Assembly (NCBI RefSeq): GCF_003334405.1
Contig: NZ_QOWM01000002.1
Length of the DNA stretch: 64,000 nucleotides
DNA from: Escherichia coli
GTDB lineage: Bacteria > Pseudomonadota > Gammaproteobacteria > Enterobacterales > Enterobacteriaceae
Direction: 5' to 3' (one strand)
The notes beneath the pieces were generated by a model, which ran no database searches, was not told the origin of the DNA, and saw only the letters and a list, made by a program, of their open reading frames with translations. Position numbers and translations under genes: made by a program. Positions 40,700 to 41,798 of the stretch are shown here, in pieces (the stretch's first letter is position 1; the number at the start of each line of letters is the position of its first letter).

Positions 40700-41798
40700 A
40701 TGTTTGAAATTAATCCGGTAAATAATCGCATTCAGGACCTCACGGAACGCTCCGACGTTCTTAGGGGGTATCTTTGACTACGACGCCAAGAAAGAGCGTC
40801 TGGAAGAAGTAAACGCCGAGCTGGAACAGCCGGATGTCTGGAACGAACCCGAACGCGCACAGGCGCTGGGTAAAGAGCGTTCCTCCCTCGAAGCCGTTGT
40901 CGACACCCTCGACCAAATGAAACAGGGGCTGGAAGATGTTTCTGGTCTGCTGGAACTGGCTGTAGAAGCTGACGACGAAGAAACCTTTAACGAAGCCGTT
41001 GCTGAACTCGACGCCCTGGAAGAAAAACTGGCGCAGCTTGAGTTCCGCCGTATGTTCTCTGGCGAATATGACAGCGCCGACTGCTACCTCGATATTCAGG
41101 CGGGGTCTGGCGGTACGGAAGCACAGGACTGGGCGAGCATGCTTGAGCGTATGTATCTGCGCTGGGCAGAATCGCGTGGTTTCAAAACTGAAATCATCGA
41201 AGAGTCGGAAGGTGAAGTGGCGGGTATTAAATCCGTGACGATCAAAATCTCCGGCGATTACGCTTACGGCTGGCTGCGTACAGAAACCGGCGTTCACCGC
41301 CTGGTGCGTAAAAGCCCGTTTGACTCCGGCGGTCGTCGCCACACGTCGTTCAGCTCCGCGTTTGTTTATCCGGAAGTTGATGATGATATTGATATCGAAA
41401 TCAACCCGGCGGATCTGCGCATTGACGTTTATCGCGCGTCCGGCGCGGGCGGTCAGCACGTTAACCGTACCGAATCTGCGGTGCGTATTACCCACATCCC
41501 GACCGGGATCGTGACCCAGTGCCAGAACGACCGTTCCCAGCACAAGAACAAAGATCAGGCCATGAAGCAGATGAAAGCGAAGCTTTATGAACTGGAGATG
41601 CAGAAGAAAAATGCCGAGAAACAGGCGATGGAAGATAACAAATCCGACATCGGCTGGGGCAGCCAGATTCGTTCTTATGTCCTTGATGACTCCCGCATTA
41701 AAGATCTGCGCACCGGGGTAGAAACCCGCAACACGCAGGCCGTGCTGGACGGCAGCCTGGATCAATTTATCGAAGCAAGTTTGAAAGCAGGGTTATGA
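40700..41798 (+). CDS. prfB: peptide chain release factor 2 (requires programmed +1 ribosomal frameshift at 40775)
   Basis: Frame 0 encodes 25 codons ([25 protein letters not shown]) ending at in-frame UGA 40775-40777; the +1 frame continues [12 protein letters not shown]... to 41798 with the RF2 motifs SPF and GGQ. The slippery context CTT TGA C is preceded by an internal Shine-Dalgarno AGGGGG. Confidence 0.95.
40763..40778 (+). other. prfB +1 frameshift site (AGGGGG-TAT-CTT-TGA-C)
   Basis: Seen directly: internal SD-like AGGGGG, 3-nt spacer, CUU codon, UGA stop, C. Confidence 0.9.

Follow-up and report, generated by a model that had tools for sequence, protein, structure and literature searches.

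The prfB gene and its programmed +1 frameshift site in a 64-kb stretch of an Escherichia coli chromosome

Positions 40700-41798 on the plus strand of the window (the whole 64-kb stretch of DNA that was analysed) almost certainly constitute the prfB gene of an ordinary E. coli chromosome, a gene in which a programmed +1 ribosomal frameshift takes translation from one reading frame into another and serves as an autoregulatory sensor of RF2 (peptide chain release factor 2). It should be annotated as a single CDS, join(40700..40774, 40776..41798), for the essential RF2 protein of 365 aa, rather than as a pseudogene or a truncated ORF. What the present data show directly are the sequence elements of the site, that the joined product is unbroken and is RF2, the family to which it belongs, and how the arrangement is conserved. 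No evidence counter to the programmed-frameshift reading of prfB was found in the present analysis. The reading frames concerned are the following.

40700..40774, plus strand: prfB CDS segment 1 (frame 0), codons 1-25, Met1 to Leu25 (from the ORF listing 40700..40777)
40776..41798, plus strand: prfB CDS segment 2 (+1 frame), codons 26-365 and the TGA stop (from translation, alignment and domain search)
40700..40777, plus strand: ORF0, the 25-residue product of termination at the internal UGA, i.e. the 'off' outcome (from the ORF listing)

The frame opened by the ATG at 40700 comprises 25 sense codons followed by an in-frame TGA at 40775-40777 (codon 26), termination at which gives rise to the truncated peptide (PMC12421855). 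In the +1 frame no stop codon intervenes between 40722 and the terminal one at 41796-41798, and the first ATG, GTG or TTG lies at 40917, with none earlier in the open frame. Because the +1 frame is devoid of a start codon before this position, the ORF lister gives only 40917..41798 (293 aa), as a sequence-only reading of this DNA had pointed out. Omission of the single base 40775 makes GAC at 40776-40778 the first codon of the +1 frame, and the join amounts to 1,098 nt, or 365 codons plus stop.

The context of the interruption is exactly AGGGGG-TAT-CTT-TGA-C (40763-40778), so that the in-frame UGA does indeed follow codon 25 within the motif named in the sequence-only reading. That reading had also placed slippage on CUU-U, which holds, at 40772-40776, which does not: CUUU spans 40772-40775, and it is base 40775 that is skipped. 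The elements of the site can be itemised as follows.

40763..40768, plus strand: AGGGGG, the internal SD-like stimulator, separated by 3 nt from the slippery CUU that follows (from the sequence and the predicted anti-SD duplex)
40769..40771, plus strand: TAT (Tyr24), spacer and E-site codon at the shift (from the sequence; E-site role from PMC12421855)
40772..40775, plus strand: slippery CUU-U, with the CTT codon at 40772-40774 (from the sequence, the junction alignment and the RefSeq join)
40775..40778, plus strand: RF2-specific in-frame stop UGA (codon 26) with the following C, sensor of RF2 concentration (from the sequence; weak context from PMC12421855)

The role of AGGGGG and its 3-nt spacing, as well as the weak termination context conferred by a C after UGA, have been described (PMC12421855). 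The AGGGGG region is predicted to form a duplex of -10.7 kcal/mol with the 3' tail of 16S rRNA, compared to a mean of -1.9 kcal/mol (sd 2.1) for 9-mers across prfB, and ranks in the top 0.1% of plus-strand 9-mers in the window. A second anti-SD-pairing stretch within prfB, GGAAGGTGA at 41207-41215 (plus strand), is about equal to the stimulator at -10.9 kcal/mol, with slippery sequence and stop absent nearby. SD-like strength alone is therefore not diagnostic of the site, and it is the composite motif which is. The 16-mer occurs only once in the 64-kb window even if 2 mismatches are allowed, for an expectation of 0.01 from shuffled sequences. Features of a prfB +1 site that were found together here include a UGA at codon 26, CUU-U, AGGGGG at 3 nt, the following C, and a gapless RF2 continuation. 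No downstream stimulatory RNA structure emerged from folding of 40740-40860 (z = -0.6 relative to shuffles, nothing notable), and no Rfam family was detected at the frameshift site at gathering thresholds. As a separate observation, the GGAAGGTGA stretch at 41207-41215 might provoke a translational pause, judging from the modelled pairing.

It is the literature on the identical E. coli sequence that documents the slippage, what the SD-like element and the stop context do, and how the system reacts to RF2 levels, and we infer by analogy with those experiments that frameshifting and autoregulation operate in the present strain as well. Ribosomes would initiate at the ATG at 40700 and read 25 codons, until CUU (Leu25) occupies the P site and UGA the A site. 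The UGA, being followed by C, would be a poor stop, and RF2 its sole reader. With RF2 plentiful, the factor would bind UGA and release the 25-residue peptide, and no RF2 would be made; with RF2 scarce, the ribosome would pause at UGA, and AGGGGG, 3 nt upstream, would pair with the anti-Shine-Dalgarno tail of 16S rRNA and displace the E-site tRNA. The P-site peptidyl-tRNA-Leu could then slip by +1 from CUU (40772-74) to UUU (40773-75), allowing GAC (Asp26) to enter the A site and translation to proceed to the stop at 41796-98, yielding the 365-aa RF2. These steps of pausing, anti-SD pairing, E-site tRNA displacement and CUU to UUU slippage are summarised in PMC12421855, and autoregulation, i.e. 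a decrease in frameshift efficiency as RF2 increases, has been reported for the identical E. coli site (PMC12421855; PMC5373646). By ribosome profiling at the endogenous locus, frameshifting was measured at about 28% for K-12 and, for the Ala246 allele of RF2, at about 21%; in K-12 it increased to about 47% when RF3 was absent (PMC5373646).

The frame could instead be restored in the RNA, by slippage of RNA polymerase rather than of the ribosome, on the run of five G (40764-40768) or on the TTT that are both present at the site. Some bacterial genes are known to be recoded by transcriptional slippage, and for this to be productive a run of at least about 8-9 identical bases is usually required. 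The G5 and T3 runs are short by this measure, and slippage of the polymerase would offer no explanation for the strict conservation of a UGA that is specific to RF2, of the C after it and of the 3-nt spacing. Since, in addition, the published mechanism is ribosomal and responsive to RF2 and RF3 levels (PMC12421855; PMC5373646), we attach only a minute probability to a transcriptional origin of the shift, and ribosomal frameshifting is retained in what follows.

The joined translation was aligned with the RF2 chains of known structure, a check that the sequence-only reading had proposed, and proved continuous with RF2 over residues 1-365 with an unbroken junction. It matches E. coli RF2 chains 1gqe_A (residues 1-365/365, E 8e-241) and 1ml5_Z (residues 1-365/365, E 1e-240) without any gap, with a single substitution relative to each chain (L293V to 1gqe and A246T to 1ml5), and the junction (...RGYL|DYDAK...) is continuous in the alignment. 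Residues 1-25, encoded by segment 1, are identical to those of solved E. coli RF2. Segment 2, which had been expected to carry the rest of RF2 including the GGQ motif, does so: it aligns to RF2 and contains the Pfam domains PCRF (residues 31-219, E 3e-61) and RF-1 (228-337, E 1e-42), the stop-recognition tripeptide SPF (205-207), Ala246, and the catalytic GGQ (250-252). Assignment to RF2 is also apparent from the NCBIfam model TIGR00020 (prfB), with 525.9 bits for a curated cut-off of 370, whereas RF1 models score 304-306 on the joined protein, under their own cut-offs of 400-423.

Codon 246 (41435-41437) encodes alanine (RASGAGGQ). Ala246 is the allele of E. coli B and of most strains, and Thr246, associated with a weaker RF2, is confined to K-12 (PMC5373646). 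The presence of Ala246 in the joined RF2 implies that the window does not originate from a K-12 strain. Better termination and slightly lower prfB frameshifting have been reported for Ala246 RF2 (PMC5373646).

The arrangement is highly conserved within the species. A 1.3-kb stretch around prfB was found once per genome in 5,426/5,426 complete E. coli genomes, with identity of at least 99% in 3,634 of the 5,426 and of 100% in many. With a 61-nt query centred on the site, 5,426/5,426 genomes were matched, 4,411 of them without any difference, and in the site variants that were sampled the differences lay downstream of the 16-nt motif, with the exception of strain BH100 substr. MG2014 (NZ_CP024650.2). 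This was the only genome of the 5,426 missed by megablast with the 61-nt query. At its locus (L124:1256-2353), GGGG replaces the GGGGG found at window positions 40764-40768, which places prfB in a single frame (...RGIFDYD...), and RefSeq annotates the gene as uninterrupted and without frameshift (WP_105166511.1). Either a homopolymer error in the sequencing produced the GGGG of this genome, or RF2 autoregulation has been lost there naturally. If rare GGGG isolates of this kind were true in-frame fusions, they would constitute a natural experiment within the species. There is a slight chance that they have truly lost autoregulation, or that the 25-residue peptide of ORF0, set free each time RF2 terminates at the internal UGA, does something in its own right instead of merely being thrown away; neither of these involves anything unusual in the present window. 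One of the 5,426 recJ-prfB-lysS matches was on a record labelled as a plasmid, which is probably a mislabelled or split chromosome.

In E. coli M217, the DNA of which is 100% identical at prfB, RefSeq describes prfB ('peptide chain release factor 2', WP_001701073.1) as a two-piece join with the mention 'programmed frameshift', flanked by recJ and lysS, and the ends of this CDS correspond exactly to window positions 40700 and 41798. Together with the alignment and the TIGR00020 score, this two-piece annotation bears out the earlier suggestion that the region be annotated as one frameshifted CDS and not as a pseudogene.

Conservation extends far beyond E. coli. One genome per bacterial or archaeal species was scanned with the pattern AGGGGGNNTCTTTGAC, used in place of the broader pattern AGGGGGNNYCTTTGAC which had too few specified bases, and at least 120 loci were obtained. 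In 107 of the 120 loci listed, the +1 frame directly after AGGGGGNNTCTTTGAC, starting from GAC, encodes an RF2 homologue (26-99% identical). As the scan was conditioned on the motif, this proportion shows that the motif marks prfB and is not an unbiased estimate of how often prfB genes carry it. The alignment begins at E. coli residue 26 in 105 of these 107 listed loci, and at residues 34 and 44 in the remaining two (L044 and L063, respectively). In the 107 listed RF2 loci a short upstream leader in frame 0 ends with RG[YSFHC]L, and among these loci are members of Bacillota, Bacteroidota, Gemmatimonadota, and Beta-, Gamma-, Alpha- and Deltaproteobacteria. For three of the other 13 listed loci, the contig stops just beyond an RF2-like leader. 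Another, in a metagenome-assembled genome of a Bacteroidetes bacterium (L036:3947-3962, JAJTCJ010000035.1), has the motif and a convincing RF2-like leader (...LRERTDALRGHL), and its +1 frame extends over 69 codons only, with no RF2 match downstream; it may represent an assembly frameshift or a degraded prfB gene. The rest of the 13 look like chance matches. The unbiased figure is that of a published survey, where the motif was present in 8,164/12,753 genomes (64%), with AGGGGG, CTTT, TGA and the following C described as 'hyper-conserved', and it was inferred to have been present in the bacterial ancestor (PMC12421855).

This conservation bears on the view that the interruption is a real inactivating mutation, leaving a pseudogene, or a one-base error of sequencing or assembly. 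The gene is formally split by an in-frame stop and a change of frame is required to read it, and the one-base difference in the G run of BH100 substr. MG2014 demonstrates that differences of this type do occur at the site in databases. Nevertheless, virtually every one of the 5,426 complete E. coli genomes has the same interrupted arrangement, and distant phyla show the same codon, the same stop and the same flanking motif, in agreement with the ancestral origin inferred in PMC12421855. Moreover, the stop is UGA, which RF2 alone reads, and, read together, the two frames specify a near-identical RF2 of full length. Conservation in E. coli and across phyla effectively refutes both the pseudogene and the sequencing error, to which we accord next to no credence.

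The other way of dispensing with a frameshift, a shorter RF2 of 293 aa initiated at the ATG at 40917 with 40700-40777 as a separate small ORF, is exceedingly improbable and can be ruled out: this ATG is the first canonical start codon of the +1 frame, yet no SD was found upstream of it (duplex of -1.4 kcal/mol), the +1 frame from 40776 to 40916 is without a start codon and still encodes residues 26-72 in exact match to solved RF2, frame-0 residues 1-25 also belong to solved RF2, the start of the PCRF domain, at residue 31, lies upstream of Met73, in other phyla the alignment of homologues sets in at residue 26, immediately after the motif, and the full-length 365-aa protein with its junction is already present in solved E. 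coli RF2 structures.

The programmed-frameshift site of the window shares all tested features with the E. coli prfB site (Craigen & Caskey 1986, as cited in PMC5373646; survey in PMC12421855). Common to both are the 25-codon leader, the UGA at codon 26, AGGGGG with its 3-nt spacer and CUU-UGA-C, the 365-aa product, and the recJ-prfB-lysS gene order; no difference was detected at the site, and the DNA is 100% identical to that of many E. coli chromosomes. Other bacterial prfB sites, in the 107 listed loci, share the motif and its placement with respect to RF2 residue 26. Lineages differ in the spacer codon: most Proteobacteria have TAT and Bacillota have TCT, with CAT, TTT or TGT occurring elsewhere, and the TAT found here is the enterobacterial form. 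Frameshifting in dnaX and in IS elements resembles that of prfB in that an internal SD-like stimulator is involved and one mRNA is decoded in two frames. However, the shifts of dnaX and IS elements are -1, occur on tandem slippery heptamers with downstream stem-loops, and yield two functional products, whereas that of prfB is a +1 shift at a stop codon, with no significant downstream structure predicted and only the shifted product known to be functional. Of these, dnaX has been named among the established E. coli frameshift cases (PMC5373646).

The prfB frameshift at this location is already known: it is a textbook +1 feedback sensor, familiar since the mid-1980s and annotated as such in RefSeq. 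Finding it again advances no open question, and its importance here is one of annotation quality only, as a naive caller gives a 293-aa fragment or might flag a pseudogene.

Downstream of prfB, and in the same orientation, lies the gene for lysine--tRNA ligase.

41808..43325, plus strand: lysS (lysine--tRNA ligase), which starts 9 nt after the prfB stop (from the ORF and the RefSeq annotation of identical DNA)

The SD of lysS (GAGGA, within TGAGGA; duplex of -6.3 kcal/mol) overlaps the prfB stop TGA at 41796-98, and a terminator-like hairpin follows lysS at 43344-43365. This layout suggests that prfB and lysS may be translationally coupled or co-transcribed. A promoter scan returned no consensus sigma-70 site upstream of prfB, its sole hit being intragenic and the count lower than expected by chance. 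The spacer between recJ and prfB features an inverted repeat (AGAGCG-T-GGATT...AATCC-CGCTCT, 40630-40658) just past the recJ stop; on the plus strand a run of A precedes the repeat, which resembles an intrinsic terminator mainly on the minus strand, where the scan flags 40652→40637. Two antisense ORFs were noted on the minus strand, 40761..41765 (334 aa, within prfB) and 41793..43208 (471 aa, within lysS). An NCBIfam search gave no match for either, and rather than genes they are most likely shadow ORFs resulting from the codon bias of the sense genes.

The possibility that the window is unusual as a whole was considered and rejected, given that it is colinear with E. coli M217 over its entire 64 kb (99.98% identical, with 10 mismatches and 1 gap) and that its gene content, from yggP to yqeB, is standard. 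No tRNA genes were found in the 64-kb window. Four small RNAs, all of them expected in this region of the E. coli chromosome, were identified elsewhere in it.

20816-20999, minus strand: 6S RNA (ssrS), Rfam above gathering score
20017-20167, minus strand: Sib antitoxin RNA, opposite the ibsC toxin ORF, Rfam above gathering score
34510-34587, minus strand: naRNA4 (CssrE), Rfam above gathering score
6903-6945, minus strand: ES036 (CssrF), Rfam above gathering score
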